Assembly: GCA_020353515.1 (NCBI GenBank)
Contig: CP070695.1
Coordinates: forward strand, 1,271,637 to 1,303,227
DNA from: Candidatus Heimdallarchaeota archaeon
GTDB lineage: Archaea; Asgardarchaeota; Heimdallarchaeia; Hodarchaeales; Hodarchaeaceae
Direction: 5' to 3'
Length of the DNA stretch: 31,591 bases
Position 1 is the first letter of the stretch, and every line of letters begins with the position of its first letter. This document shows, in pieces, positions 44 through 23,018 of this stretch. The notes below the pieces were generated by a model. That model was not told the origin of the DNA. It saw only the letters and a list, made by a program, of their open reading frames with translations, and ran no database searches. Made by a program: the position numbers and the translations under genes.

Positions 44-1444
44 TTGCCAATTATGGGAATCATGGGAGGTGGAGAATCAGAAAAAGAAATAATAGCTGTG
101 TTCTTTGGTTCAAGTATGGATAAAAAAGTGAGTCAAGAGGTTGTGGCATCAACAGGAATATCAGCACGTTATTACAACATTTCTAAGATACAAGAGGACC
201 CATCATTTAAATTTGATAATGAGAGTATTGCAGCGATTTGGTGGATCAACGAATTACCTTTATCAATAGATTTAACCTTTGCAGGTGAAATAAATGAATG
301 GGAACAAGCAGGAAAAGGGTTATTTGTACTGAATCGTTATTTTAATAAAACACCACTCCAAGTATTGAAAAATTTCGGCATAAAAGCTTATGCACCAGTA
401 GTATATCCTATTAATGGGTCTTTCGTAAAACAAGAGTTGAATATAGTAGAAAACGAATCAATATTAACTTCAAATATCACTACTTTTGAAGTCAACTGTA
501 GCACAGCATGGGTAGAGGTTGATAATCAAATACAGATGCTGATGGAAGTTAAAAAACCTGAAATGGAACCTTTTTTGAATGATTTGACATCAGGTATTTG
601 GTTTGTAGACAGCCGTGTCATTGTAGGTAGTTTTTCGATCGAAATACCAATAGAAATTCCAGACTCCCAATTTAATTTACATGAGATAGATCAAGCCACA
701 TCAACAGAGATGATTGATATCTTAGGTCAACTTGTACAATTAACAATAAGGAGTTTACCCTCCGATAATGGTATTCAAATTCAGTTTGGAGATGTGAATC
801 AATTAACAACAATGGGTCTCGTTGTAATCGCGAGTGTTTTATCCATTCTCGTTTTGATAAAGGTAGGAGTGATATCAAAAATACGTGAAATCGTGGTGGG
901 AGGTTTATTGAGTTTATTCTTATTTTTCGCCCATATTGCTTATTCACCACAAAGACGACGAATCAATGAAACCGAACTCTTAGAAAATGAATTACGAGGC
1001 CAGATTGTACATTTCTTAACAGTGAAGGGGGAACAAGGGGCGCACTTACGGGAGATTCAAAGAGAAATAGGATGTGGGATTTCTTCCTTATTATGGCATT
1101 TACAAGCATTAGATGATTTTAATTTGATAACCCATGAGAAGATTGGAAAATATCATATTTTTTACCTTGTTGGGGCGAAGTCTGTTCAAATTTCAGAGAT
1201 AGCCTTGGCTCTCAAAAGTGATGTGGCAAAAGAATTGTGTCGTGTGCTGATAAGGAAAGGAAAACCTTTATCATTATCAAAAATCTCACAAGAAATTGAT
1301 GTTCATCACTCAAGTATTCAACATCACATTAAAAGATTAGAAGAATTAGGAATTATAATTTCGTTGAAGGAAAAGAAACGATCTAAGTATATAGTTGGCC
1401 CAAAACGTTTATCTTGGTTAAAGAGTCATTTGGAGGTGGCTTGA
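44..1444 (+). CDS. Membrane-anchored protein with two C-terminal winged-helix (ArsR/MarR-like) DNA-binding domains. The reading frame is open back to window position 2, so the true N-terminus may lie upstream of the window.
   Basis: 466-aa ORF. Hydrophobic helices MGLVVIASVLSILVLIKVGVI and VVGGLLSLFLFFAHIAY are followed by a basic stretch (SPQRRR). Two wHTH-like segments follow: LREIQREIGCGISSLLWHLQALDDFNLITHEKIGKYHIFYL and LSLSKISQEIDVHHSSIQHHIKRLEELGIIISLKEKKRSKYIV. Codons 2-43 read KLLLVAGIIIISIS, a further TM-like segment. Confidence 0.6.
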   Translation: MPIMGIMGGGESEKEIIAVFFGSSMDKKVSQEVVASTGISARYYNISKIQEDPSFKFDNESIAAIWWINELPLSIDLTFAGEINEWEQAGKGLFVLNRYFNKTPLQVLKNFGIKAYAPVVYPINGSFVKQELNIVENESILTSNITTFEVNCSTAWVEVDNQIQMLMEVKKPEMEPFLNDLTSGIWFVDSRVIVGSFSIEIPIEIPDSQFNLHEIDQATSTEMIDILGQLVQLTIRSLPSDNGIQIQFGDVNQLTTMGLVVIASVLSILVLIKVGVISKIREIVVGGLLSLFLFFAHIAYSPQRRRINETELLENELRGQIVHFLTVKGEQGAHLREIQREIGCGISSLLWHLQALDDFNLITHEKIGKYHIFYLVGAKSVQISEIALALKSDVAKELCRVLIRKGKPLSLSKISQEIDVHHSSIQHHIKRLEELGIIISLKEKKRSKYIVGPKRLSWLKSHLEVA

Positions 1445-1498
1445 ACGAAGGATAAAGGCCTACACAGACGGAAAACATGGCTTCTGGGAATTTGTTTA

Positions 1499-3076
1499 GT
1501 GACAATAGCCATGGGAAGTACAATATCAGGTGTGGGAATAACAGGGTATCAGTTCAGCCAACTGGATCCATTTTTTGAGAAGAAATTGTTTGGTTTAGTA
1601 TTTGATTACAATCCTAACGCACCAATAGATCAGAATCTGTGCCTAAAAACAGATCTAATGAATCAGACACAGTATAAGAATGATGATCCAGATGGAGAGG
1701 AAGATAATATCATTGCTTTAGTAGGACATAACTCTCAAGAGATCAAATCTGCCTTTTTAGCATTACAACAGGTGAAACGGACACAAGATATCATAATTGA
1801 TACTATTGAGTGGCAAACCATAGTCCCATTTGCGAAATATTTACACCAGTTTACTCTCCCCTCTGGGGAAGAGGTCATCTTAGGACAAGACTTCCTTGGA
1901 ATGGCACTGAAGCTTAATGGAAGCGGTTTTAATCCTACAGATTATCAACTCGGATACGCTAATGTCCCGTTGGATTTTTTAGAGTTTATAGTACCAGAAA
2001 GTGGAGATTCTTCTCTTAATTTATCAGTAGAGACATCTATCACGATCCAAGAAACCACAAATGAGCTCCAAATTAATCTAATTTATTCCAACGTGACTTT
2101 TTTATTCCAAACAGATAATATTGATTTAGAAAATATTTTTGCCTTAGAATTTGCAGACCATTTAATAATAGTCCAGTTTGATAGGATCGAATTTTCCAAC
2201 ATTTTTAGAAAATATTCTCACCATGGGACTTCTGGCGTGGAGACTCTATCCGAAATTAGAATAGGAAACACTTTGAATCTGATAATTAATGAGGAGCTTC
2301 CACAAGATCAAAATTGGACCAACGCTTTTGATTATGAAATTCAAGAGGATTTTAGAGGTTTAATACCAATACAAGAGACATTCTCATTGTATCAAGGTTC
2401 AGATATTAAGAATCGTCTACAACAGTTCTCTGATATTTCATTCTCTATTATCACAGCACAAAATATTGGTGTACTGAACGGAACTCAGGCTGTAGACAAT
2501 TTTAGAGTATTGATTGATGATCAGAACAGAACTTCAAGAGAGATTGACCGTAATAGTTATCCTGTAAAAGAAGAGATTACAGTGCTTCATGATGAGCAGC
2601 TGCTATTTTCAACCCAAGTTAAAGGACGAAATTTTGCACAGCAGGATGATATTCTCTCTTTAGTTCCAATAGAAACACAAGTAATTGCATTAGATCAGCA
2701 AAGTGGGTTTGCAGAGAATCTTTTATTCCTACAAGAAACCTCTTTACTAAAAGAACTGGTTGCTGAATGTGTTAAACGATTTATAAGCAATCCAACAGTA
2801 TCTACATTAGGAACCAATGAAATTATTAACAAGGGAGGATTGGATCTTATGTCAGCACTATATTATCAAGATTTTCAACTTAAAGGATGGACTGGGTCGG
2901 GTTTTAAGATAAATTTAATTCAATACGCAGTCAAGACTCGTTCATCATCTTCTATCAATACAAAATTAAGTCAACTCACACTTAGTCCAACTGTGTCAGA
3001 ATTATTAGGGTTTCTAATTCTAGGAGTTATTATTATACGAAGAATGAGAACAAAAAGAAAGCGTAAAAATCTCTAA
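1499..3076 (+). CDS. Surface or secreted protein of unknown family with a C-terminal TM anchor and a polybasic tail. The start codon is uncertain.
   Basis: 525-aa ORF with many N-x-S/T sequons (NQT, NGS, NLS, NVT, NWT, NGT, NRT). The C-terminus reads LLGFLILGVIIIRRMRTKRKRKNL. A signal-peptide-like n-region (HRRKTWLLGICLV) lies upstream of the GTG start, in the same frame. Confidence 0.55.
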   Translation: MTIAMGSTISGVGITGYQFSQLDPFFEKKLFGLVFDYNPNAPIDQNLCLKTDLMNQTQYKNDDPDGEEDNIIALVGHNSQEIKSAFLALQQVKRTQDIIIDTIEWQTIVPFAKYLHQFTLPSGEEVILGQDFLGMALKLNGSGFNPTDYQLGYANVPLDFLEFIVPESGDSSLNLSVETSITIQETTNELQINLIYSNVTFLFQTDNIDLENIFALEFADHLIIVQFDRIEFSNIFRKYSHHGTSGVETLSEIRIGNTLNLIINEELPQDQNWTNAFDYEIQEDFRGLIPIQETFSLYQGSDIKNRLQQFSDISFSIITAQNIGVLNGTQAVDNFRVLIDDQNRTSREIDRNSYPVKEEITVLHDEQLLFSTQVKGRNFAQQDDILSLVPIETQVIALDQQSGFAENLLFLQETSLLKELVAECVKRFISNPTVSTLGTNEIINKGGLDLMSALYYQDFQLKGWTGSGFKINLIQYAVKTRSSSSINTKLSQLTLSPTVSELLGFLILGVIIIRRMRTKRKRKNL

Positions 3077-3290
3077 AAAAAGATTAATTTCACATTCTCA
3101 AATCAAAATGAAGCAATTACGATCATTACAAACAAATAAGGCTGGAATTAACATTATACACTAATTAATCTCAGGATTTCGTGAATACAAAGGTTTAAAG
3201 GGAATTAAAAATCATTTTTTACTTTTTTTGGCGGATTTTTGTTTCGCACATTTTTTTAAAGGATGATAAATGCATAGTTCTTAGGCTAAT

Positions 3291-3345
3291 TTCTCGACTT
3301 TTGAGGTAACTCAGAAACTTGACTTATGAGTTTCATAGTCGAGAA
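3291..3345. promoter_or_regulatory. Nested inverted repeat upstream of the PGF-CTERM protein gene, possibly an operator or a 5'-UTR hairpin.
   Basis: TTCTCGACT (3291-3299) is the exact reverse complement of AGTCGAGAA (3337-3345). An inner 6-bp repeat pairs AACTCA (3308-3313) with TGAGTT (3327-3332). The element lies 44-98 nt upstream of the ATG at 3389. Confidence 0.3.
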
Positions 3346-3388
3346 TTCAATTAAATTCATTTAAAAGTTATTTAGGTGAAATCTAAAA

Positions 3389-5086
3389 ATGAAAAAACAA
3401 AAAATATTGATTATACAGTTGGCATTGTCTACAATTGCTATCTTAACTAGTTCGATAATTTTTTCAGCTGCTAATACAACGTCTCCTACTGAATTCATTC
3501 TCTCTCATGACTTTAGTGAAGATTATTTCTCTGAAACAATCGATGTTCCACTTAAACCATACTTCCCTGATGATAACGCCTCTGTCTTTATATCTTATGT
3601 TAATTCATCAGGTATTGAATTGTTGTACTCTGGATTAGAAAAAGTAGAAATGGATCTTTATCTCAGTGATGTTTTTTCCACTACAGCTATGGAAGCCATA
3701 AAAAATGCTGGTTTTAGTGACCAACCGATTGCAAATGTAAATGCGACATCACCCTTTCAATTTCTAATTGAACATTGGACAACAACAGAAGATGGTTCAA
3801 CTTTTTCAGAGAAATTCGTTACAAATGATTTTGTTGGAATTATTGCATACTCCACTACTCCAGAAGATAAAATCTTGGATCCTGAAGACACTATCTACGT
3901 TGGATACACACTTGCTCTCAATCAATTAACTGAAGCTCTTAACACAGTAATCACAGACCCCTCCCATGGTTATGATCCTATTCCTCGCTATGATGTTGAA
4001 ACTACCTTTGATGTTGTGAACACAAACGAAATTCATTTTGGAATCAAATATACCAATATGGTGACATTTTGGCAAAAAGTAGACGAAAGTGCTTTTGATC
4101 CACTTAAAGATGTTCCAAGCATATTATTAAGAGATGAAATAGAAAAATTAAAAGCAATGACTGCTGGATTTCACGCAGCAACAGTATTTGACTACCTAGC
4201 TTTTGACTACGAAGTAACGTGGTCCGAGGACACAAGTGGGGAACTTCCAGAAGTTACAACCGACGTTATCACCCATTACAATATTGGGGAAGTAAGTTGG
4301 TTATTCACAATGGACTCTGGAACACCAATTGACCCAGAGTACTCTGACTCGTTCAAGGAATCATTGATTTATGAAATCGATCTTCCTGGTAGTGGAATAT
4401 CCGTCCCTTATCTAGGAACAATTCCTGATAAACTATCTCATACATTTGATATCGAAGCTTATCCATTTGATGATGCACAAGCACGTATAAATGATTCGAA
4501 TGGTTTTGGTTTTGCAGTAATGACACAGACTAATTCTTATGGATTATCATTTGAAGAAACCATCTGGGATGATGGAAGTCTCACGATTTCAGCAGGAGAC
4601 GATTTTCAAACTTCTTTTGTTGGAAAAAACACCTATAAATTGAAAGGTGTTGAAGAGCTAGGTTTCAATCCTGATACGGATCGTGAAGTCACTCTTCTTG
4701 CTGAGAAGCAAGCAGATATGAGTCATGTAACTACTCCCTTGGTGAAAGGATATTTAGATATTTCTCACGGACTCTATCACGACTTTATAAAGTGGATACT
4801 GGACGTTGGATTTGGTTATACACAAACCTATGAATACAGGGTTGGCCAAGCAAATTACTTGACTCTCACTCAATTCGGTGATTGGGTAGGCGGAGAAATC
4901 ATCCACGATCCCACCTATTCCGCTGTTGCCGCTATGGCTGCTGAACCTCCAGAATCGAGCTCTACACCAGAAGAATCTAGTGAAGAACACGAAGAATCTA
5001 GTGATGGTGTTCCTGGATTCGAGATTCTCTCAGTATTGCTAGGAATTCTTCCTGTCTATGCGTTGTACCGTAAACGACGCCGATAA
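3389..5086 (+). CDS. Cell-surface (glyco)protein with an N-terminal signal peptide and a PGF-CTERM-type archaeosortase sorting signal.
   Basis: N-terminus MKKQKILIIQLALSTIAILTSSIIFSAANTT has the shape of a signal peptide, and the protein has many N-x-S/T sequons. An acidic Ser/Thr/Pro/Glu linker (EPPESSSTPEESSEEHEESSDG) is followed by VPGFEILSVLLGILPVYALYRKRRR. That is a PGF motif (nt 5012-5020), a TM helix and a basic tail. Confidence 0.75.
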   Translation: MKKQKILIIQLALSTIAILTSSIIFSAANTTSPTEFILSHDFSEDYFSETIDVPLKPYFPDDNASVFISYVNSSGIELLYSGLEKVEMDLYLSDVFSTTAMEAIKNAGFSDQPIANVNATSPFQFLIEHWTTTEDGSTFSEKFVTNDFVGIIAYSTTPEDKILDPEDTIYVGYTLALNQLTEALNTVITDPSHGYDPIPRYDVETTFDVVNTNEIHFGIKYTNMVTFWQKVDESAFDPLKDVPSILLRDEIEKLKAMTAGFHAATVFDYLAFDYEVTWSEDTSGELPEVTTDVITHYNIGEVSWLFTMDSGTPIDPEYSDSFKESLIYEIDLPGSGISVPYLGTIPDKLSHTFDIEAYPFDDAQARINDSNGFGFAVMTQTNSYGLSFEETIWDDGSLTISAGDDFQTSFVGKNTYKLKGVEELGFNPDTDREVTLLAEKQADMSHVTTPLVKGYLDISHGLYHDFIKWILDVGFGYTQTYEYRVGQANYLTLTQFGDWVGGEIIHDPTYSAVAAMAAEPPESSSTPEESSEEHEESSDGVPGFEILSVLLGILPVYALYRKRRR

Positions 5087-5410: not shown

Positions 5411-8026
5411 ATGGCTTTAATAGATCCATTATTAGATCCAGTTAACCTTTTTGTCTCTTTACTTCTGACATTCTCTCCCATAATCATTCTATTCGTACCA
5501 TATCTCTTCACGCGGCGAAAGGATGAAAATTTTTTCGCTGTCATCTTTAATCGTGCTTATCTCGGGTTTATTGTGTTTTATTTGGCATACTTCATTATTC
5601 CCAGCATTTTGAACGCTATAGTACCAAATCCAACTCAGTATATGGATCAAGAATATTATCCAGTTACAGGAACAAATGAATACAGTAGCATTTGGGATTC
5701 ATCTGCTGTTGATGAGGAAACACTAAATGACTTTCTAACATTAATTGGTTTGCCAGGAATACCTTTATTAGTTAAATACATGTTCCAACATTTTGTAAAT
5801 TCAATTGTTAATTATTTATATTATCCAATCATAATTCTAGCGTTTGTTTTTGGCATTTCACCAGTTATTTCAATGATTATTTTGTTATACCAAACATGGG
5901 GTGAGAGTCGAAATGAAAAAAAGCCACTGAAACGGCTAATAAAACAAAATCAGGCTGAAATAAAACTTCTTCAAAACAAACGAAAATTAGCTAGCGAAAC
6001 TGAGATTCCAGAGATAACCCATGAAATAAATACACTTGAAAATGATGTCAATAATTTGCAACAGCAGCTAACAGAAGGACGGAGTGTCACTGAAAGATTA
6101 CAAGAAATACAATTTGAAATGGAAGTTTCACCTTTTCAGGAAATTACAAAACGGGTGAAGGAAAAGGAGTGGGGGAATGAAAGAGAATTACTGAAAGTAC
6201 TCATTGCAATCCTACCCATTACCTTATTTCTTCTGATGACAATCCTTCAACTACTAGGAGAAACTGAAAATCCAAGTTTACTACAAGGAACAGCGATGGG
6301 ACATTTTCTAGAAATATTCTTTGCTTATATTGCTTCAATAGTATTCAGTGTTTATCTTATAAAAGCAAGTCGGTTATCAAGAAAAGGTAAGTTCTTAGGA
6401 AATCAACTCTATGTTGCAATGGTTCAGAGCTTATCGACTGTAGGTGCATTTATGTCAGGACTCGCAGTTATTCTCTTTCTGGTTCAATATTTTGACCAAA
6501 TCTTTGTAGTTTCTTATTTCGTTGCATATTTTATTATGGTTTCAATATTTTTTGTACTTTTTTTGGATATTTTTGAACCTTTCTCGATTTATTTGTTGAT
6601 CAAACTCATTGAGACATTTAAAAATTTCAAATTGGCAGTTGAACGGATCAACTCTGCTAATATAGCGAAATCAGCTGTATTGGGGATAATTATTGGTTTC
6701 CTTTTAGCTATAGGTTTTCTTGTTTATCGTGTCATAGTTTCAGGATTGTTTCCTCGAAATATTGATACAGTACAATATAGTACTTTCTTTTGGTTTACTT
6801 TGAATTACGTAAGTTTTCTTTTAAGTGCAGCATTAATTCTATTTATAAGAAGATGGAATTGGAGTATTTTTACAACCACGTTGATTGCATATTTGTCAAT
6901 ATCCTCAGTCAGCCTCTTACTCTTTTTGTGGTATGATGAAGCTCTTTATAGATTAATACCATTTCTAAATTTAGATAATCCAATTTTCATCATTGACGCT
7001 GTTCCTTTAATACCGCCGTTTATCACACTTACGTCAGGGCTCGCTGGAGGAGGAGAACGGCTCCAATGGTACACAAATATCTGGAAGGAAGGTGTCTATG
7101 GTGATATACATTTTATTATTCCAGAATTACATCGGATTCCAGTAATTTGGAAAGGAGAGGGCGGCATTTTCCTTGGTCTTTTGTCCATTCCTTATAATCT
7201 CCTTCATCCTCTAGCAATAATATTGACATATGGCAGCATTCTATTTTTGGTAAGACGGAAGTTTCATATTAGAACACAGAAAAGTGATTTAGAAGGAGAA
7301 GAAAAAATTCAATACAGGTCAGTCTATTCTGATATAGGAAGACTTCCCAGTTTAAATGAACTAGAAAGGAAATCAGACATAATTTCAATCGGAGCAACTC
7401 CAGTTGATGATCCAGAAATAAACCAAAAATTAGAAGAAGCATGGGTAGAGATTGAAAGAGGGCATCAGTTACGTGATGCAATAACTGGAAAAGTAGAACC
7501 TCTTAATGAGTTAACGAGGAAAAGTGGATTAAGTACTGTGGAGATTCATCAAATCTTAGATAATCTGACCTTTGATATCGATATCCCATTCAACCAAGTT
7601 TTGACTGTCTTGCATAGAGAATTTTCGTATTCATTTGAAGAGGTAACAATAGACTCCCTTCATGTTATGATGCTGGATGGACGGGCAGTATTATCACATA
7701 CTTTTGCAACCGAATCACAGGTTGAACCAGCGTTGGTAGCTGGTCTTTTTTCCGCAATTACTTCTTTCGCGAAAGAAGCGGTACGAAGTGAACAGTTATT
7801 AAAGACAATAGATCATGGTGATGTTGTTCTAACCATTGAATATGCAAAATGGGTCTTTGCTGCGATTTTTGCAGATAGTACATCTACTGAATTACGAAGA
7901 AAACTAGGAGATTTTTTGACAAGCTTTGAGGCAAGACATGCAAAAACCCTCCCAATATGGTTAGGAGATCTTGACATATTTAAGAGCGATGTTAAAATCA
8001 TTGATGACGTTTTCTCTGCTTTATAA
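5411..8026 (+). CDS. Large polytopic membrane protein with an internal coiled coil and a cytosolic C-terminal roadblock/longin-like domain.
   Basis: 871-aa ORF with more than 12 hydrophobic helices. A charged coiled-coil segment is present (KKPLKRLIKQNQAEIKLLQNKRKL...LQEIQFEME). The C-terminal ~250 aa are soluble. They end in LHVMMLDGRAVLSHTFATESQVEPALVAGLFSAITSFAKEAV...VVLTIEYAKWVFAAIFAD (nt ~7649-7948). Confidence 0.7.
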   Translation: MALIDPLLDPVNLFVSLLLTFSPIIILFVPYLFTRRKDENFFAVIFNRAYLGFIVFYLAYFIIPSILNAIVPNPTQYMDQEYYPVTGTNEYSSIWDSSAVDEETLNDFLTLIGLPGIPLLVKYMFQHFVNSIVNYLYYPIIILAFVFGISPVISMIILLYQTWGESRNEKKPLKRLIKQNQAEIKLLQNKRKLASETEIPEITHEINTLENDVNNLQQQLTEGRSVTERLQEIQFEMEVSPFQEITKRVKEKEWGNERELLKVLIAILPITLFLLMTILQLLGETENPSLLQGTAMGHFLEIFFAYIASIVFSVYLIKASRLSRKGKFLGNQLYVAMVQSLSTVGAFMSGLAVILFLVQYFDQIFVVSYFVAYFIMVSIFFVLFLDIFEPFSIYLLIKLIETFKNFKLAVERINSANIAKSAVLGIIIGFLLAIGFLVYRVIVSGLFPRNIDTVQYSTFFWFTLNYVSFLLSAALILFIRRWNWSIFTTTLIAYLSISSVSLLLFLWYDEALYRLIPFLNLDNPIFIIDAVPLIPPFITLTSGLAGGGERLQWYTNIWKEGVYGDIHFIIPELHRIPVIWKGEGGIFLGLLSIPYNLLHPLAIILTYGSILFLVRRKFHIRTQKSDLEGEEKIQYRSVYSDIGRLPSLNELERKSDIISIGATPVDDPEINQKLEEAWVEIERGHQLRDAITGKVEPLNELTRKSGLSTVEIHQILDNLTFDIDIPFNQVLTVLHREFSYSFEEVTIDSLHVMMLDGRAVLSHTFATESQVEPALVAGLFSAITSFAKEAVRSEQLLKTIDHGDVVLTIEYAKWVFAAIFADSTSTELRRKLGDFLTSFEARHAKTLPIWLGDLDIFKSDVKIIDDVFSAL

Positions 8027-8059
8027 CCCCAGATTCAAGACATTCCTTGAAATTAAACC

Positions 8060-10690
8060 TTATATCGCTTCACCAATTATGAAAAGATATTCTCCAGAGT
8101 CTAATTGGGCAATTGAACAAAGAATTGTTGTAAAATCCGTTTTCAAAACGATTTTTAGCCCATTTAAAGGATTTATAGCTTTTTGATGAAGCAAAAATCC
8201 CTTTTGAGTCATCAAAGCAGCCCACTGTAATAATTCTGATTCCGAATATGTCAATATTCTGATTGATTTGGAGTTTATTCCAATTCCTGATTCAAAGATT
8301 AAATCCCGTTCTAAAATGTCAGATATAAGAGTTTTTGGAAGAGAATTTTCCTGTAACTCGCTAATTAACTCAGTAAACCATCTGGTATCCTCTTCAGTTA
8401 CATCTTGTAATCTTTCCTCAGAAATATAATCAGCTATATCAGCTTCAGGAACAGTAGAAGCTTGATCTTCAGCTATGGTTTCTTCAAGCTTGGCTTCATC
8501 AGGAGGAAGTAGAGAGATGAAATGTGGTAATTCACGATTTTGGTCAGCAAGTACGAGAATCCCATCACGAAGATATGAAATAATAACCTCTGTAATCTTT
8601 CGATAACTATAATCTGAATCTAAAAGACATTGATTAACGATCTCCAATGCAAAGAGGCCCTCGGATAAGGCAAGTTGATCAATTTGCTTATTAATAATCT
8701 CGTACAATATCGGATGAGATATTTCTTCTTTATAGGATCGATTCATCTGTAAGGGAGAAATTAAGGATAATCCTAGAAAACAATCAAGAAGCTTAATTGT
8801 TGGAGCGAATTCATCAATCAATCCAACAAATTCTTCGAGATTTTGCTGAAATTCCGTTTCGAATTGATAAGAGAAATTTCTAATTCGTCTCTTAAAATTG
8901 TTTAAGTACTTGGGAGTTCGATTGAGGATGACGGCAGTGACAGAACTGGCTCCTTCTACAGTAATGATTTCAAAAGCCCTGTCTCCTATCTCTTCCTTAA
9001 ATATGCGCAGTATTGACCGTTCTTTCACAAGATCCGTCTTAAGCTCGCTAAAAAGACCTGAAATTGCGCTTAAGAACCCTGAAACTAGTTGAGGGTCTAT
9101 TTTTAACATCGTAATGCCTAGTTCAAAAATACAAATTCCAGTTTTTTTATGGACTACTAGAATGTGATTACAGGTTAGTAAATTTGTCAAATCTTTATAG
9201 TTAAATGGTTCTATCTCTATCCCAGAAGGTGTGTCTTCATCCTGTTCAATCACGGAGGATTCTAACTTAGGTATATGTAATTCATCAGAGATTACAGGTC
9301 TACCAATTTTTGCAACCCCTCTATACCGAGGGATAGAACTAGGCATTAAATCTTCTTGAGGGTCTATATGTTTTGATAAACGAGGACGAATATGGATTTT
9401 TATTGGCCCTTGACTTCCTAATCCTACAATTAACGCTTCCCCCCGCGCGAGATGAGGTAAATTTGACACTACTTCAGAACTTATTCCTTCCATCAATCGA
9501 ATCTTGTTAATGTCTTTATCAGATCTTATCCTTAACGCAATTAATGTGTTCATATTAGCAATGATGTTATCTGGAAAATCTGCAGGTCTTTGAGATATCA
9601 GAATTTCATAAATTCCAAATTTTCGACCTTCTCGAGAAATTCGTGATAAGATTTCATTTGTAGTAGAGAAGCGGTGTGCTTCTTCGACAACCAGAACGAC
9701 TTCCTGCTCTCTTGCTATTTCTCCCTGAATTTTCATGTCGAATATTAGAGTTAAGACTTCGTTAACAAATAAATTTCGTTTTTTCTCGTCAGTAAACTCA
9801 TCTAAACGGATAATGGATATTTGGCCTGGACGAACAAGAGCATTCAAGTCAAATTCTTCTTCAAATAGGTTCAAGTTTTGTAAAGAATAGATCTTTGATA
9901 CAAGAGTTTCTCGAGTTGAGGTATGAAAATCAGACTTTTGAATTAATGAGACTAATTCATCTAGCAAGATTGGTTTTTTAATTAAATTTGATAAGGAGTT
10001 CTCTTGCGCAGCTGTTAAATCAATCAATCTACGAATTCGTTGTAAATCAAATTTGCTCCCGAGTCCTAAAGAGTCTTTTTCAAAAATGAGTATATTATCT
10101 TTGAACTCACGAGGGGAATATTCTTCGTAATTTAACTGTTCAATTTCTCCACCATCATTTGGTTGAGCTAAACCCCAATATTCGTTATGAATGTCAAATA
10201 ATAAGACTGATGCTGACTTAAATTTCATAATAATTTCTTCTAGCATCACCCCCACGCTGTAAGATTTTCCTGCACCTGTGCTTGCAACACACAGAACATG
10301 TCGTTCTATAAACTTGGGTGATATAAGAAAGGGATCTGTATGATCCTGATATGTTACGACATCTCCTAAATAAATTCCTTGATCCCCCCTATATGAGATA
10401 ATCTTAGAAACTAGTCCTTTAGGTGGGTGTTCGATTTGTGCTTGTGATGAAATGGGGAACCTACATGGGGAGAGTGAAAAATCTTCAGAGTTTATTTCTC
10501 CTAGAATTGTTGCGGTTCCTCTTATTTCTTCTCCCCTGGTTTGAATGAGGTGCGCTACTTGCGCTAAATACTGTTTTTCAGGTGTTTTTTCTGAATCTGT
10601 AATCAAAACAAAATCTTGTTCATGAATGGTTGCTTTACTTTCATCTATATAGAAAGAAATTTCCCCTGTTGAAGATTTTATTACTTCCAT
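8060..10690 (-). CDS. HerA/FtsK-superfamily (DUF87-type) P-loop ATPase fused to a roadblock/longin-like domain and a further ~260-aa C-terminal extension.
   Basis: Walker A is CVASTGAGKSYS (nt 10262-10285). Walker B is EVVLVVEEAHRF. REGRKFGIYEILISQRPADFPDNIIANMNTLIALRIRSDKD is typical of HerA-like ATPases. Residues ~505-615 read NHILVVHKKTGICIFELGITMLKIDPQLVSGFLSAISGLFSEL... Confidence 0.8.
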   Translation of the reverse strand: MEVIKSSTGEISFYIDESKATIHEQDFVLITDSEKTPEKQYLAQVAHLIQTRGEEIRGTATILGEINSEDFSLSPCRFPISSQAQIEHPPKGLVSKIISYRGDQGIYLGDVVTYQDHTDPFLISPKFIERHVLCVASTGAGKSYSVGVMLEEIIMKFKSASVLLFDIHNEYWGLAQPNDGGEIEQLNYEEYSPREFKDNILIFEKDSLGLGSKFDLQRIRRLIDLTAAQENSLSNLIKKPILLDELVSLIQKSDFHTSTRETLVSKIYSLQNLNLFEEEFDLNALVRPGQISIIRLDEFTDEKKRNLFVNEVLTLIFDMKIQGEIAREQEVVLVVEEAHRFSTTNEILSRISREGRKFGIYEILISQRPADFPDNIIANMNTLIALRIRSDKDINKIRLMEGISSEVVSNLPHLARGEALIVGLGSQGPIKIHIRPRLSKHIDPQEDLMPSSIPRYRGVAKIGRPVISDELHIPKLESSVIEQDEDTPSGIEIEPFNYKDLTNLLTCNHILVVHKKTGICIFELGITMLKIDPQLVSGFLSAISGLFSELKTDLVKERSILRIFKEEIGDRAFEIITVEGASSVTAVILNRTPKYLNNFKRRIRNFSYQFETEFQQNLEEFVGLIDEFAPTIKLLDCFLGLSLISPLQMNRSYKEEISHPILYEIINKQIDQLALSEGLFALEIVNQCLLDSDYSYRKITEVIISYLRDGILVLADQNRELPHFISLLPPDEAKLEETIAEDQASTVPEADIADYISEERLQDVTEEDTRWFTELISELQENSLPKTLISDILERDLIFESGIGINSKSIRILTYSESELLQWAALMTQKGFLLHQKAINPLNGLKIVLKTDFTTILCSIAQLDSGEYLFIIGEAI

Positions 10691-14890: not shown

Positions 14891-17086
14891 TTGAGCATAA
14901 AAAATCTTCGAGATATACGTGGAATTGGCCCATCAGTGGAAGACAAGCTGAAGGCATATTTTAAAAGCGAAAATGACGCTCTCACCGCATTACGTGAATC
15001 TCGAATAGCAGAAATATCATCTATCGAGGGAATTGGGGAAAGATTTGCTCTGAGTATGTGTCGTAACCTCCATTTTCAAGAAACTGGGGAGCAGATTCAA
15101 AATTTCTTGAAAACAGAGGATGCGATCTTACTTTATAATCGAGTAATAGATATCATCTCAAAATTTGCTAATACTGCATACTCAAGGTCAAAACTATATT
15201 TATTCTTTCCATTACCAATTACAGCTTTAAATAAAATAAAAACGAGGCAAAAAACGACCCAACGTGCACAAAAATTGGTATCATTAATAAAAAACTCTCC
15301 TCATTCCTTCGAAGATTATGACAAACTGCTCAGGAACCTTTCACCTCTAAAGGAACAAATATCTCAGTTAGATACAGCTTCACGTGTAATAGCAACTGCA
15401 GATAGGCAAATCCATGAAGAGCTTATAGCTAACGAGATAGCAAATTATTGTGAAATCCTTTTTATCGAAGAAATTGAACAAATTTCAGGTTTCATTGGGA
15501 GCTATGATGAAGTTATTTGGATTGGATCAGATATTTTACTTGAAGAAGGAGTTACTAATGCAATTACCATTTCCGAGACTCAACGAAAAGATTTAATTAG
15601 AATAATCCCAGAAAAAACCCTCGTCTTCTTTGCAAATAATAAGAAAATCCTCGAATCAATATCTGGAATAGCTAGATTACTTAAAACAATTTCTCCATCG
15701 GAATTGACTGTATTCATTAGGGAATTAGATCTAGATATACTTATCGAGATGGGTAATGAGCTTTCAAACCTAGAAGAGTCAGGTGAACCAACACAACTTT
15801 TTAACGAAGAATATGCCCGTCTTTTAAACGCAGAACAGAGCTTTGATAACAGCTTAAGTGAAGTTCTTCTACTATTAAATGAAGAACTAGAAAAAACACT
15901 TCAGGACACCACTGTTCACTTAGAAGGAGAAAAAATTCTCGCTCTCTTAAAAGGTATGGGAGAGGAGGAACATAGATACTCCAGGGATAGTGGAAAAGCA
16001 GAACTACGTGAATATCTGGATGATGAACTATATTTAGCAGTTGAAGAGATCGTAACTAAAGCAGAGGAAAACCTTATTCAAAAATTAGCTTTGAGAAGTG
16101 ATGAAACAGATTACATCACAGGAATTTTCCCAAGAGAACTTCAATATCCAGTCGATCCTGTTGATGACGTAGTTAATCGCGTAAAAACCTATTTACGACA
16201 ATCAAGAGCAGTTAAATCTTTTGAACTTAAAGTAGCATTAGCTAAATCTCTTGAGCGATTTGAAATCATTGCTAAAACTGCATTGAATTATATATTTGAG
16301 TTAGATTTTCTTTTAATGATTGGAAAGTTTGCCCTTAGTTATAATCTGGTTCTCCCACAACTTGTTGAAGATCAGGGTACTGGAATCCTTGTGGAAGAAA
16401 GCCGAAATCTATTTTTAATACAACAAGAGCAACGGGGGATGTTGAAAGTTGAATCCGTCTCATATGCAGTAGGAGAAATTGGACAGATTGCTGGTAGTGT
16501 AGATGGTGAACGGATTATCCTTCTTTCAGGTGCAAATAGCGGAGGAAAGACAACACTGATAGTTTCTATTGCAGTATTGGTCATTCTAGGCCAAATGGGG
16601 CTGCCAATTCCGTGTAAACAAGCTATATTCGGGGGTTTTAACGAATTACATTATTATCGAAAGGCCTCAGGACAAATGGATGCTGGAGCTTTTGAAACTA
16701 CATTACGGACATTATCTCAAATGATAATGAGTCCAAATTCACGATTGGTGTTAGCTGATGAAATGGAAAGCATGTCGGAGCCAGGCGCATCCGCTCGGGT
16801 GATAGCAGCCTTTTTAGACCTATTAGGTCGCTCACCAAATTCAGTTGGAGTATTCGTAACCCACTTAGCCCAATTAATAGCAAAATATACTAAGGGAAAA
16901 CTGCGTATCGATGGGATTGAGGCACAAGGTCTATCTAAGGATTTAGAACTCATTGTAAATCGGACACCTGTATACTATCAATATGCGAAATCAACACCAG
17001 AATTAATTGTGAGAAGATTACAACAAATCTCGAAAGGCGATGAAAAAGAAATCTATTCTTACATACTAGAAGCCTTTGAATCTTAA
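14891..17086 (+). CDS. Archaeal MutS-like ABC-type ATPase (MutS domain V) with N-terminal helix-hairpin-helix motifs.
   Basis: HhH-like segments IRGIGPSVEDKL and IEGIGERFA. Walker A is LLSGANSGGKTTL, Walker B region is LVLADEMESMSEPGA, and FVTHL follows downstream. 731 aa, TTG start. Confidence 0.75.
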   Translation: MSIKNLRDIRGIGPSVEDKLKAYFKSENDALTALRESRIAEISSIEGIGERFALSMCRNLHFQETGEQIQNFLKTEDAILLYNRVIDIISKFANTAYSRSKLYLFFPLPITALNKIKTRQKTTQRAQKLVSLIKNSPHSFEDYDKLLRNLSPLKEQISQLDTASRVIATADRQIHEELIANEIANYCEILFIEEIEQISGFIGSYDEVIWIGSDILLEEGVTNAITISETQRKDLIRIIPEKTLVFFANNKKILESISGIARLLKTISPSELTVFIRELDLDILIEMGNELSNLEESGEPTQLFNEEYARLLNAEQSFDNSLSEVLLLLNEELEKTLQDTTVHLEGEKILALLKGMGEEEHRYSRDSGKAELREYLDDELYLAVEEIVTKAEENLIQKLALRSDETDYITGIFPRELQYPVDPVDDVVNRVKTYLRQSRAVKSFELKVALAKSLERFEIIAKTALNYIFELDFLLMIGKFALSYNLVLPQLVEDQGTGILVEESRNLFLIQQEQRGMLKVESVSYAVGEIGQIAGSVDGERIILLSGANSGGKTTLIVSIAVLVILGQMGLPIPCKQAIFGGFNELHYYRKASGQMDAGAFETTLRTLSQMIMSPNSRLVLADEMESMSEPGASARVIAAFLDLLGRSPNSVGVFVTHLAQLIAKYTKGKLRIDGIEAQGLSKDLELIVNRTPVYYQYAKSTPELIVRRLQQISKGDEKEIYSYILEAFES

Positions 17087-21516: not shown

Positions 21517-22251
21517 CTACTGAATCGAGATAACATCGGTAGATTCATCATAATTTAGTAGATTCTTTTCAGCCATTCGTCCAAGAGTACGAGTTATTAT
21601 TACTGGAGAAATCAGTCCTTCAAGCGTTTTCTTTAATTGTTCTTTCGATGTTTTTCCAAGTTTCATCACTGCTGCAAGAATGTCAACTTCAGGAATATCT
21701 TCTGCTGATTCCTCAAGTAGGAACGAAATAACAGCATTATTTGCTTTTAAGGTTTCTAATTCTTTTCTTAGCTCCTCATTCTCAACTTGTTTTGCCTCAA
21801 TTTCTGTTTTTAGTTTTATTTCCATCTCTTGATTTTCTTTTGTCAGAGAGGCAATTCTCTCTCTTTTTTGGGTAATTTCAGATTTCATGTTGTTTATTTC
21901 CTCATTGATTGTTTGAAGAGCTTCTGCAATGCTGTTACTCTCTGTTTGAATTTCTTCTGACCGATTTTTTTTCATTTGAAGTTCTTCTGCGGTACTCGTC
22001 TGCTTACGGACTAATTCTTCTTTTAAATTTGACTGAGAATTTATTTCTTCTTGAAGAGAAGAAATTTTAGCTTCTTGTTCTGTAATCTGAGTATCGACTG
22101 CTTCTTTTTCTTTAATAAGAGTTTCAAGATAATCTTTTGATTCTTTTAAGTCTTGAACTCTTGTGAATACTAGTTGTTTTGTATCGTCTCCCAAGCGACT
22201 CAGAGCTTCTTCACTTCTAATAAATTTCTCTCTTAAAGTATCTGTATCCAT
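21517..22251 (-). CDS. Coiled-coil protein with a C-terminal winged-helix domain, unknown function (paralogous architecture to its upstream neighbour).
   Basis: About 185 aa of E/K/Q-rich heptad sequence, then KTSKEQLKKTLEGLISPVIITRTLGRMAEKNLLNYDESTDVISIQ. Confidence 0.6.
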   Translation of the reverse strand: MDTDTLREKFIRSEEALSRLGDDTKQLVFTRVQDLKESKDYLETLIKEKEAVDTQITEQEAKISSLQEEINSQSNLKEELVRKQTSTAEELQMKKNRSEEIQTESNSIAEALQTINEEINNMKSEITQKRERIASLTKENQEMEIKLKTEIEAKQVENEELRKELETLKANNAVISFLLEESAEDIPEVDILAAVMKLGKTSKEQLKKTLEGLISPVIITRTLGRMAEKNLLNYDESTDVISIQ

Positions 22252-22253
22252 AG

Positions 22254-23018
22254 TCAGACCTCCTTGTCAAACAGATCAATCTTTACCAAGAGCGTGACGC
22301 CATCTTCTGATTCGTTGAATTCTAGAACCTTTCGTGCCTCTAACAACTTTAAAACTGAATTTAAGGTGGTTGGATCCATACCTAATGCTGATCGAATTTC
22401 AGTCAGTTTTGAATGGGGACTGGGTTTCTTTGCCAAGAATTTAATTAATCCAACTTCTGGACTTTGAATATATTCTTTTGAACAAAGAATTCGGATTGCC
22501 TGAAACCTATTTGCTAGTAAAGATTTTTCAGCTTCTAATCGTTCATACTCTTGTGTGATTGCTTTCATACGGGTTTCAAATTTAGGTTTCAATTCATCAT
22601 GAATATTCTCTAATGAAGCAAGCTCTACTTCAAGCGAACGAAGAGTCGTTGTATGATTCGTTTTTTCAGAGTCAAGAATACCAAATTTATTTTTATCTGC
22701 CAATAAATCTGATTGGTTTTGAGATACTTGAGTATTTATCAAATCAATATTACTTTGAATTGAAGAAATTTCATTCTCAATTTGGCCAATTTCACTACGG
22801 AAAGTCTGAAGATCATTTATTAAATCAGAGATCTCTCGTGTATAATCATTAGACATTCGACGTCGTTCATTTATATAATTTCTAAGGGATTCAATATCAC
22901 TAATAAGAGATTTTAAATCTTCTCGTATTAGTTGAACTCGACTCTGAAACTTATTTACTAATTCCTCTAAACTAAGCGCCAATTTTCTAATTTCTTCTGC
23001 AGATTTAGGGGTACTCAT
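22254..23018 (-). CDS. Coiled-coil protein with a C-terminal winged-helix domain, unknown function.
   Basis: About 180 aa of heptad-rich sequence, then HSKLTEIRSALGMDPTTLNSVLKLLEARKVLEFNESEDGVTLLVKID. Its stop is 2 nt from the start of the next gene. Confidence 0.6.
   Translation of the reverse strand: MSTPKSAEEIRKLALSLEELVNKFQSRVQLIREDLKSLISDIESLRNYINERRRMSNDYTREISDLINDLQTFRSEIGQIENEISSIQSNIDLINTQVSQNQSDLLADKNKFGILDSEKTNHTTTLRSLEVELASLENIHDELKPKFETRMKAITQEYERLEAEKSLLANRFQAIRILCSKEYIQSPEVGLIKFLAKKPSPHSKLTEIRSALGMDPTTLNSVLKLLEARKVLEFNESEDGVTLLVKIDLFDKEV

Follow-up and report, generated by a model that had tools for sequence, protein, structure and literature searches.

HerA-family proteins form hexameric rings with ATPase and translocase activity, and the HAS barrel of characterized HerA binds NurA, its partner in DNA end resection (PMC9960219). 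HerA/VirB4-type ATPase genes are also found next to polytopic membrane-protein genes in the Ced (Sulfolobales) and Ted (Thermoproteales) systems, in which CedA and TedA have 6-7 helices and are accompanied by a pilin (PMC9905601). Longin and roadblock proteins act as dimeric platforms (PMC10933270), and Asgard archaea hold 130 Roadblock/longin-type gene clusters, with extensive and narrowly distributed domain shuffling (Liu et al., bioRxiv 10.1101/2020.10.19.343400).

We analyzed a stretch of 31,591 nucleotides (the window) from a Hodarchaeales genome held on a single contig of 4.94 Mb. Hodarchaeales is an Asgard lineage that has been proposed as the closest to eukaryotes. Both open reading frames of the original prediction were present: a polytopic membrane protein of 871 aa at 5411-8026 (plus strand) and, tail to tail with it, a HerA-type ATPase of 876 aa at 8060-10690 (minus strand), the stop codons lying 33 nt apart. 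The remaining window genes are of housekeeping type (thioredoxin reductase-like, PTPS, MptE, metallo-beta-lactamases, MutS-like, JAB, Cdc48, and TmcA). Homologs of the two proteins, full-length ones in the case of the ATPase, are mostly labeled Hodarchaeales or Heimdallarchaeota, and some records carry other Asgard labels.

Like archaeal HerA, the ATPase possesses a DUF87 core with Walker A and B, arginine finger and SQRP motifs behind a HAS-barrel-like N-terminus, and its core is 36% identical to the NurA-linked HerA of the same genome. Unlike HerA-NurA, it has no adjacent nurA, falls in a separate clade, carries a 380-aa tail, and has a core that is exchangeable with two other HerA-type clades; its score against NF040819 was 119 bits, for a cut-off of 970. 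The locus resembles Ced and Ted in pairing a HerA/VirB4-type ATPase gene with a polytopic membrane-protein gene, but it differs from them by scores far under the cut-offs, more helices, convergent genes, longin domains, and a membrane protein that is usually alone. The longins closest to those of the locus are Sec22b, VAMP7, synbindin/TRAPPC4, the AP mu and sigma N-terminal domains, Fuzzy/Mon1-Ccz1, and the Asgard longin 8yqg, whereas the longins of the locus lack a sequence-level Pfam or PDB longin match and are fused to a membrane region and a HerA motor. The ATPase fusion fits the pattern of lineage-specific multidomain Asgard eukaryotic-signature proteins (10.1101/2020.10.19.343400), a text that mentions neither HerA nor FtsK. 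The prediction that the domain combination matches no described system held, as we found none with a HerA core, a longin and this tail architecture. Our literature search likewise retrieved no paper joining Asgard, longin and HerA, none on the gene pair or the orthologue locus tags, and no description of repeated in-place motor-core exchange.

The two proteins carry longin domains

The ATPase and the C-terminus of the membrane protein had been predicted to share a roadblock/LC7-longin-like domain. The two segments do align (BLASTP, 25% identity over 107 aa, pairwise E 3e-9), profile-profile comparison gave a probability of 97.6% with an E of 3.9e-12 over 119 columns, and the motifs were located at ATPase aa 508 (NHILVVHKK, nt 9169-9143) and membrane-protein aa 750 (LHVMMLDG, nt 7658-7681). 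The longin part of the name was borne out, with a five-stranded sheet ordered strand-strand-helix-strand-strand-strand-helix-helix and a core without an N-terminal helix. The roadblock/LC7 part was dropped, as that fold has a helix ahead of the first hairpin and only one at the C-terminus. The domain had been placed correctly and drawn too short: it spans aa ~500-645 of the ATPase (8756..9193, minus strand) and aa 746-871 of the membrane protein (7646..8023, plus strand). Neither longin, nor the ATPase tail, nor the membrane region had a match in sequence searches of Pfam, NCBIfam, PADLOC, and the PDB.

The likeness of the two longins exceeds chance as homology, yet it is unexceptional within the genome. 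An iterated profile picked out 42 proteins with a longin-type domain in this genome, and the pair ranks 40th by score among the 861 in-genome domain pairs (top 5%). With about 4,200 genes, ~0.4 neighboring pairs of longin genes are expected by chance and four were seen, the three others being same-strand tandems of similar size. The membrane-protein longin scores 156 and 119 against two other membrane proteins and 90 against the ATPase. The ATPase longin profile, in turn, ranks a 2039-aa protein over the membrane-protein neighbor, and it reaches E ~1e-40 against the longin/winged-helix cassette of large Asgard proteins vs ~1e-6 to 1e-12 against the membrane longin. Neither copy is clearly the closest relative of its counterpart, and local duplication as their source was rejected. 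The step from a shared domain copy to docking of the ATPase on the membrane protein, which the original prediction took, therefore loses most of its force, as 42 proteins carry the domain and each copy is closer to other proteins. A shared longin alone is ordinary: neither domain is of a new kind, and Asgard archaea commonly carry longin fusions. Modeled as a complex, the two longin domains scored 0.02 (mark 0.32), a result counted neither for nor against docking.

The closest in-genome relatives of the membrane-protein longin are two tandem membrane proteins of 560 and 549 aa (genome positions 3142665-3146198), each with 9-11 helices and a longin at its end; by eye, they look transporter-like and have a DRFGRK loop motif. 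A further longin of the genome is encoded at 3373679.

The ATPase has an intact motor core and a composite tail

As predicted, the HerA-type core is intact, with Walker A ASTGAGKS at aa 136, Walker B VVLVVEEAH at aa 331, and ISQRPADF at aa 365. This core, here called type A, covers aa ~108-445 (9356..10369, minus strand) and matches DUF87 (PF01935) with 71 bits for a cut-off of 23 (E 1.5e-19). Together with the arginine finger REGRK and the SQRP sensor motif, these features place the protein among the HerA-type members of the FtsK/HerA superfamily, and the motifs are invariant in 41 homologs. The core is preceded by a degenerate HAS-barrel-like domain at aa ~7-102 (10385..10672, minus strand), which was missed by Pfam and aligned by hhalign with 91% probability to the N-termini of NurA-linked HerA proteins. 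This domain is confined to the type A core.

The "long acidic C-terminal extension" of the original prediction is acidic only in a disordered linker of ~40 aa, and the rest consists of a probable winged helix and a folded domain of ~107 aa. Along the minus strand, the longin is followed by the probable winged helix (aa ~660-714, 8549..8713, assigned by DSSP), the linker (aa ~726-764, 8399..8515, pLDDT under 50, unalignable between homologs), and the C-terminal alpha/beta domain (aa ~770-876, 8063..8383, pLDDT 84-94). The longin and winged helix form a cassette common to many large Asgard proteins (profile positions 5-225, in many genomes); it stands at the end of many proteins of 700-1900 aa and was also seen in Atlas models of 734-764 aa proteins. 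The C-terminal domain was found in 23 of 400 genomes, all of the order Hodarchaeales, and an ESM Atlas feature search with it gave only sub-0.9 leads. The architecture of the ATPase as a whole is likewise specific to Hodarchaeales. A possible link of this domain to the tail ends of unfused relatives of type C (see below), noticed by eye, was not borne out by HMM comparison (E 0.04 or worse).

One homolog (L014:3628-6045, genome G021) is an 805-aa ATPase with an open frame in which profile positions ~472-587 are unmatched; it apparently lacks part of the stretch preceding or inside the longin. A separate, second HerA-longin fusion (P0063, L154:8001-10979) has its longin at the N-terminus and a core that scores like type A, followed by winged-helix-type repeats (Pfam E3_UFM1_ligase match); it has no neighbor from the membrane family.

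The motor core has been exchanged under a constant tail

One tail, made of the longin, winged helix, linker and C-terminal domain, can be aligned over its full length in all these ATPases and sits on three separate HerA-type core types (A, B, and C). In a maximum likelihood tree of 51 cores, whose long branches leave the deep order unsure, unfused Asgard proteins join type B at 100/100 support and other unfused relatives join type C at 100/99, while the type A core of the 876-aa ATPase forms its own clade, sister to P0062 at 99/99 and outside the NurA-linked HerA clade. Monophyly of the cores on this tail was rejected for all of them together (p-AU 3.75e-22), for A with C (0.0017), and for A with the core of lineage L025 (0.0011). 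Types B and C have no HAS barrel. These trees indicate that the HerA-type core was exchanged between lineages at least twice while the docking tail was kept.

The L025 ATPase is itself a mosaic. Its core is 65% identical to that of L022 and 23% identical to that of the 876-aa ATPase, whereas its tail is nearer to the window genome (40% vs 31%), as is its membrane neighbor (52% vs 42%), and the identity switch falls at aa ~450-500. L025 joins the genus of the window at 100% in both the tail tree and the membrane-protein tree. As type B is the most widespread core at the locus, type A probably replaced it in the genus of the window. It should be noted that the timing of this swap rests on one assembled contig (L025), unchecked against reads; the three-core result is independent of it. 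In genome G022, the whole tail is a stand-alone protein of 502 aa without a core, encoded close to an MptE-like gene and at a distance from the membrane gene.

Among unfused proteins, the type C core is closest to HerA-type proteins of ~890 aa with a 300-aa helical N-terminal extension, encoded in one family of the class (L148:6561-9248 and L149-L152).

The membrane protein belongs to an Asgard-wide family

The model of the membrane protein (pLDDT 81, pTM 0.81) begins with a membrane region of about 11-13 hydrophobic helices at aa 1-613 (5411..7249, plus strand), as judged from hydropathy and DSSP. Polar residues conserved in this region among 54 sequences are R48, Y60, E301, Y306, Y373, E389, K398, and W553, of which E301, E389 and K398 hint at ligand or ion handling. 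The region also contains a beta-hairpin (aa 552-577) and a lineage-specific coiled-coil hairpin insert (aa ~166-225, 5906..6085), seen in the alignment and as helices in the model, with a column conservation of 0.06 and absent from most of the distant members. A probable winged helix at aa ~668-743 (7412..7639) was assigned from its secondary-structure pattern and has weak PDB profile matches to HTH proteins only (E 0.59 and 1.7). No Pfam, NCBIfam or PDB sequence match was found for the protein as a whole, the ESM Atlas feature search gave nothing usable for the membrane region, and fold searches with the full model, longin included, returned longins only.

With the N-terminal membrane core as a query, the family was found in 145 of 400 Asgard genomes from several families, in essentially one copy each, and in none of the other searched families of the class of the window. 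A search of 1.84 billion proteins retrieved 55 representatives, and those that could be placed were Asgard. The same longin stands at the C-terminus of each of the 20 distant members examined. Orthologs, annotated as hypothetical proteins, include Promethearchaeum syntrophicum DSAG12_01663 (QEE15836.1) and Lokiarchaeum ossiferum NEF87_001530 (UYP45245.1), two species in which no tail protein was found, and others occur in Odinarchaeum and Atabeyarchaeum. The family is apparently ancient, single-copy, unnamed, and restricted to Asgard archaea. The top conservation of the protein lies in the longin helix-to-strand segment (0.90 within Hodarchaeales and 0.73 outside), including in lineages without the ATPase. 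As this segment is best conserved outside Hodarchaeales too, the main partner of the longin would be older and more widespread than the ATPase.

Conservation of the gene pair

The expectation that the two genes would be conserved as neighbors was confirmed in the genus and only partly beyond it: the convergent pair is present in 22/22 genomes of the genus and at 5/10 Hodarchaeales loci or lineages outside it (present in L022, L024/L088, L025, L089, and L163; no fused ATPase beside the membrane gene in L020, L021, L023, L083, and L087). None of the 20 non-Hodarchaeales loci examined has a fused ATPase beside the membrane gene. Small convergent genes next to the membrane gene in L020 and L023 were considered as split ATPase pieces and rejected, as they are MoaE and an unrelated gene. 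The membrane proteins of the five non-genus lineages with the pair are just 34-52% identical, and the pair persists through local rearrangements (L024/L088, L089, and L163) and core exchanges. In two genomes, the genes of the pair are separated by a B12 radical SAM gene. The entire ten-gene block around the pair is likewise kept across 22/22 genomes of the genus, and the gene for PTPS, an unrelated enzyme, is at most three genes away in the genus and in 4/5 of the other lineages with the pair. The linkage is therefore old and real and only modestly above background, as pterin genes travel with the pair almost as well. Both the survival of the pair through rearrangements and core exchanges and the top-5% longin similarity fit a real functional link.

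Upstream of the membrane gene, three genes on the same strand (44-5086) encode a membrane-associated double-HTH regulator, a 525-aa secreted protein, and a 565-aa Heimdall-CTERM surface protein (3389..5086, plus strand; NF045529 above cut-off). Several Hodarchaeales lineages keep this trio next to the membrane gene, no less often than they keep the ATPase there. The surface-protein gene is a frequent upstream neighbor of the membrane gene in Hodarchaeales: BLAST detected it in L021, L022, L023 and L025, and a gene of similar size occupies that place in L087 and L089. Outside Hodarchaeales, the neighbors vary and include a histone deacetylase family gene, profilin, and PAP2. In L063, L065-L068 and L073, which belong to other Asgard families, the membrane gene and a histone deacetylase-family gene point away from each other, and next come genes for profilin, a short FtsX-like permease, and an ABC ATPase.

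Possible functions of the pair

We lean toward the view that the longin adaptor tail positions an exchangeable motor, the membrane protein being a scaffold that is older, also bears a longin, and has a partner of its own. The locus would then bring together two separately evolved uses of a common Asgard longin module, placed tail to tail in an old Hodarchaeales gene block. The membrane protein would be an ancient Asgard scaffold or receptor whose cytoplasmic longin helix and edge strand bind an Asgard-wide partner and not specifically the ATPase; this partner might be a second copy of the protein, a different longin or roadblock protein, or a small GTPase. The ATPase gene would be an adaptor-motor fusion in which the tail is the inherited unit and sets the site of action, probably at or near the membrane. 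The ring motor on this tail, presumably a hexamer as in its family, has been swapped no fewer than two times, and one genome lacks it; it would most likely hydrolyze ATP and move along or pump nucleic acid.

Direct docking, in which the Hodarchaeales ATPase tail heterodimerizes with the membrane longin and the ring motor serves as a lineage-specific accessory under the membrane protein, seems doubtful to us. The longins of TRAPP Bet5/Trs23 and Mon1/Ccz1 heterodimerize in this way. Docking would agree with the dimeric platforms known for longin/roadblock proteins (PMC10933270), with the retention of the pair, through rearrangements, in half of about ten sampled lineages, and with the fact that the part staying beside the membrane gene is the tail and not the motor. 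However, most Asgard lineages with the membrane protein do not have the tail protein, the genes are convergent and hence not co-transcribed, two genomes have a B12 radical SAM gene in between, and the G022 tail gene is near MptE and apart from the membrane gene; the proximity of PTPS further suggests that gene-order inertia explains much of the linkage. A fuller version, in which the ancient membrane protein recruits, via a longin-longin heterodimer as in TRAPP or Mon1-Ccz1, an adaptor whose plug-in HerA motor tethers or moves DNA at the membrane, we regard as unlikely.

A variant DNA-repair or defense helicase of the HerA-NurA or Sir2-HerA style, in which the tail replaces the nuclease or effector partner and the membrane neighbor is irrelevant, would account for the top family matches (HerA helicases), for the HAS-barrel-like domain of the type A core, and for the winged helix, a fold that often binds DNA. 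We judge it improbable, as the two NurA genes of the genome (at 921 kb and 2812 kb) adjoin two other HerA genes, the core is outside the NurA-linked clade, the HAS barrel is missing from type B and C cores, and, in contrast to most defense loci, the gene is inherited stably in a housekeeping neighborhood. The analogy to conjugation or DNA import drawn in the original prediction, with the membrane protein as a channel through which the ATPase pumps DNA, fared worst and is very improbable. An intact HerA/FtsK-type motor does adjoin a polytopic membrane protein and a surface protein, and the CedD and CedB models do match weakly; yet CedD reached 82 bits for a cut-off of 600 and CedB at most 39 for 700, the VirB4 model was also far below its cut-off, the helices number about 11-13 vs 6-7 in CedA/TedA, no pilin gene or pilin-sized conserved neighbor was seen among ORFs of at least 80-90 aa, and the membrane family mostly occurs without the motor.

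That motor cores from three HerA clades have been exchanged in place while the tail stayed the same shows where the function is encoded. The membrane family, with its strongly conserved longin surface and its orthologs in cultured species, is a candidate for the way in which longin adaptors were attached to membranes before the rise of eukaryotic trafficking.

Two other parts of the window drew our attention. At 21517-23018 (minus strand), two adjoining coiled-coil proteins of 244 and 254 aa have no family match above cut-off, and one shows a weak C-terminal winged-helix match. A 731-aa MutS-V/KamC-like ATPase with an N-terminal helix-hairpin-helix is encoded at 14891-17086, and its gene adjoins a DNA-repair metallo-beta-lactamase gene in an arrangement conserved in the genus.
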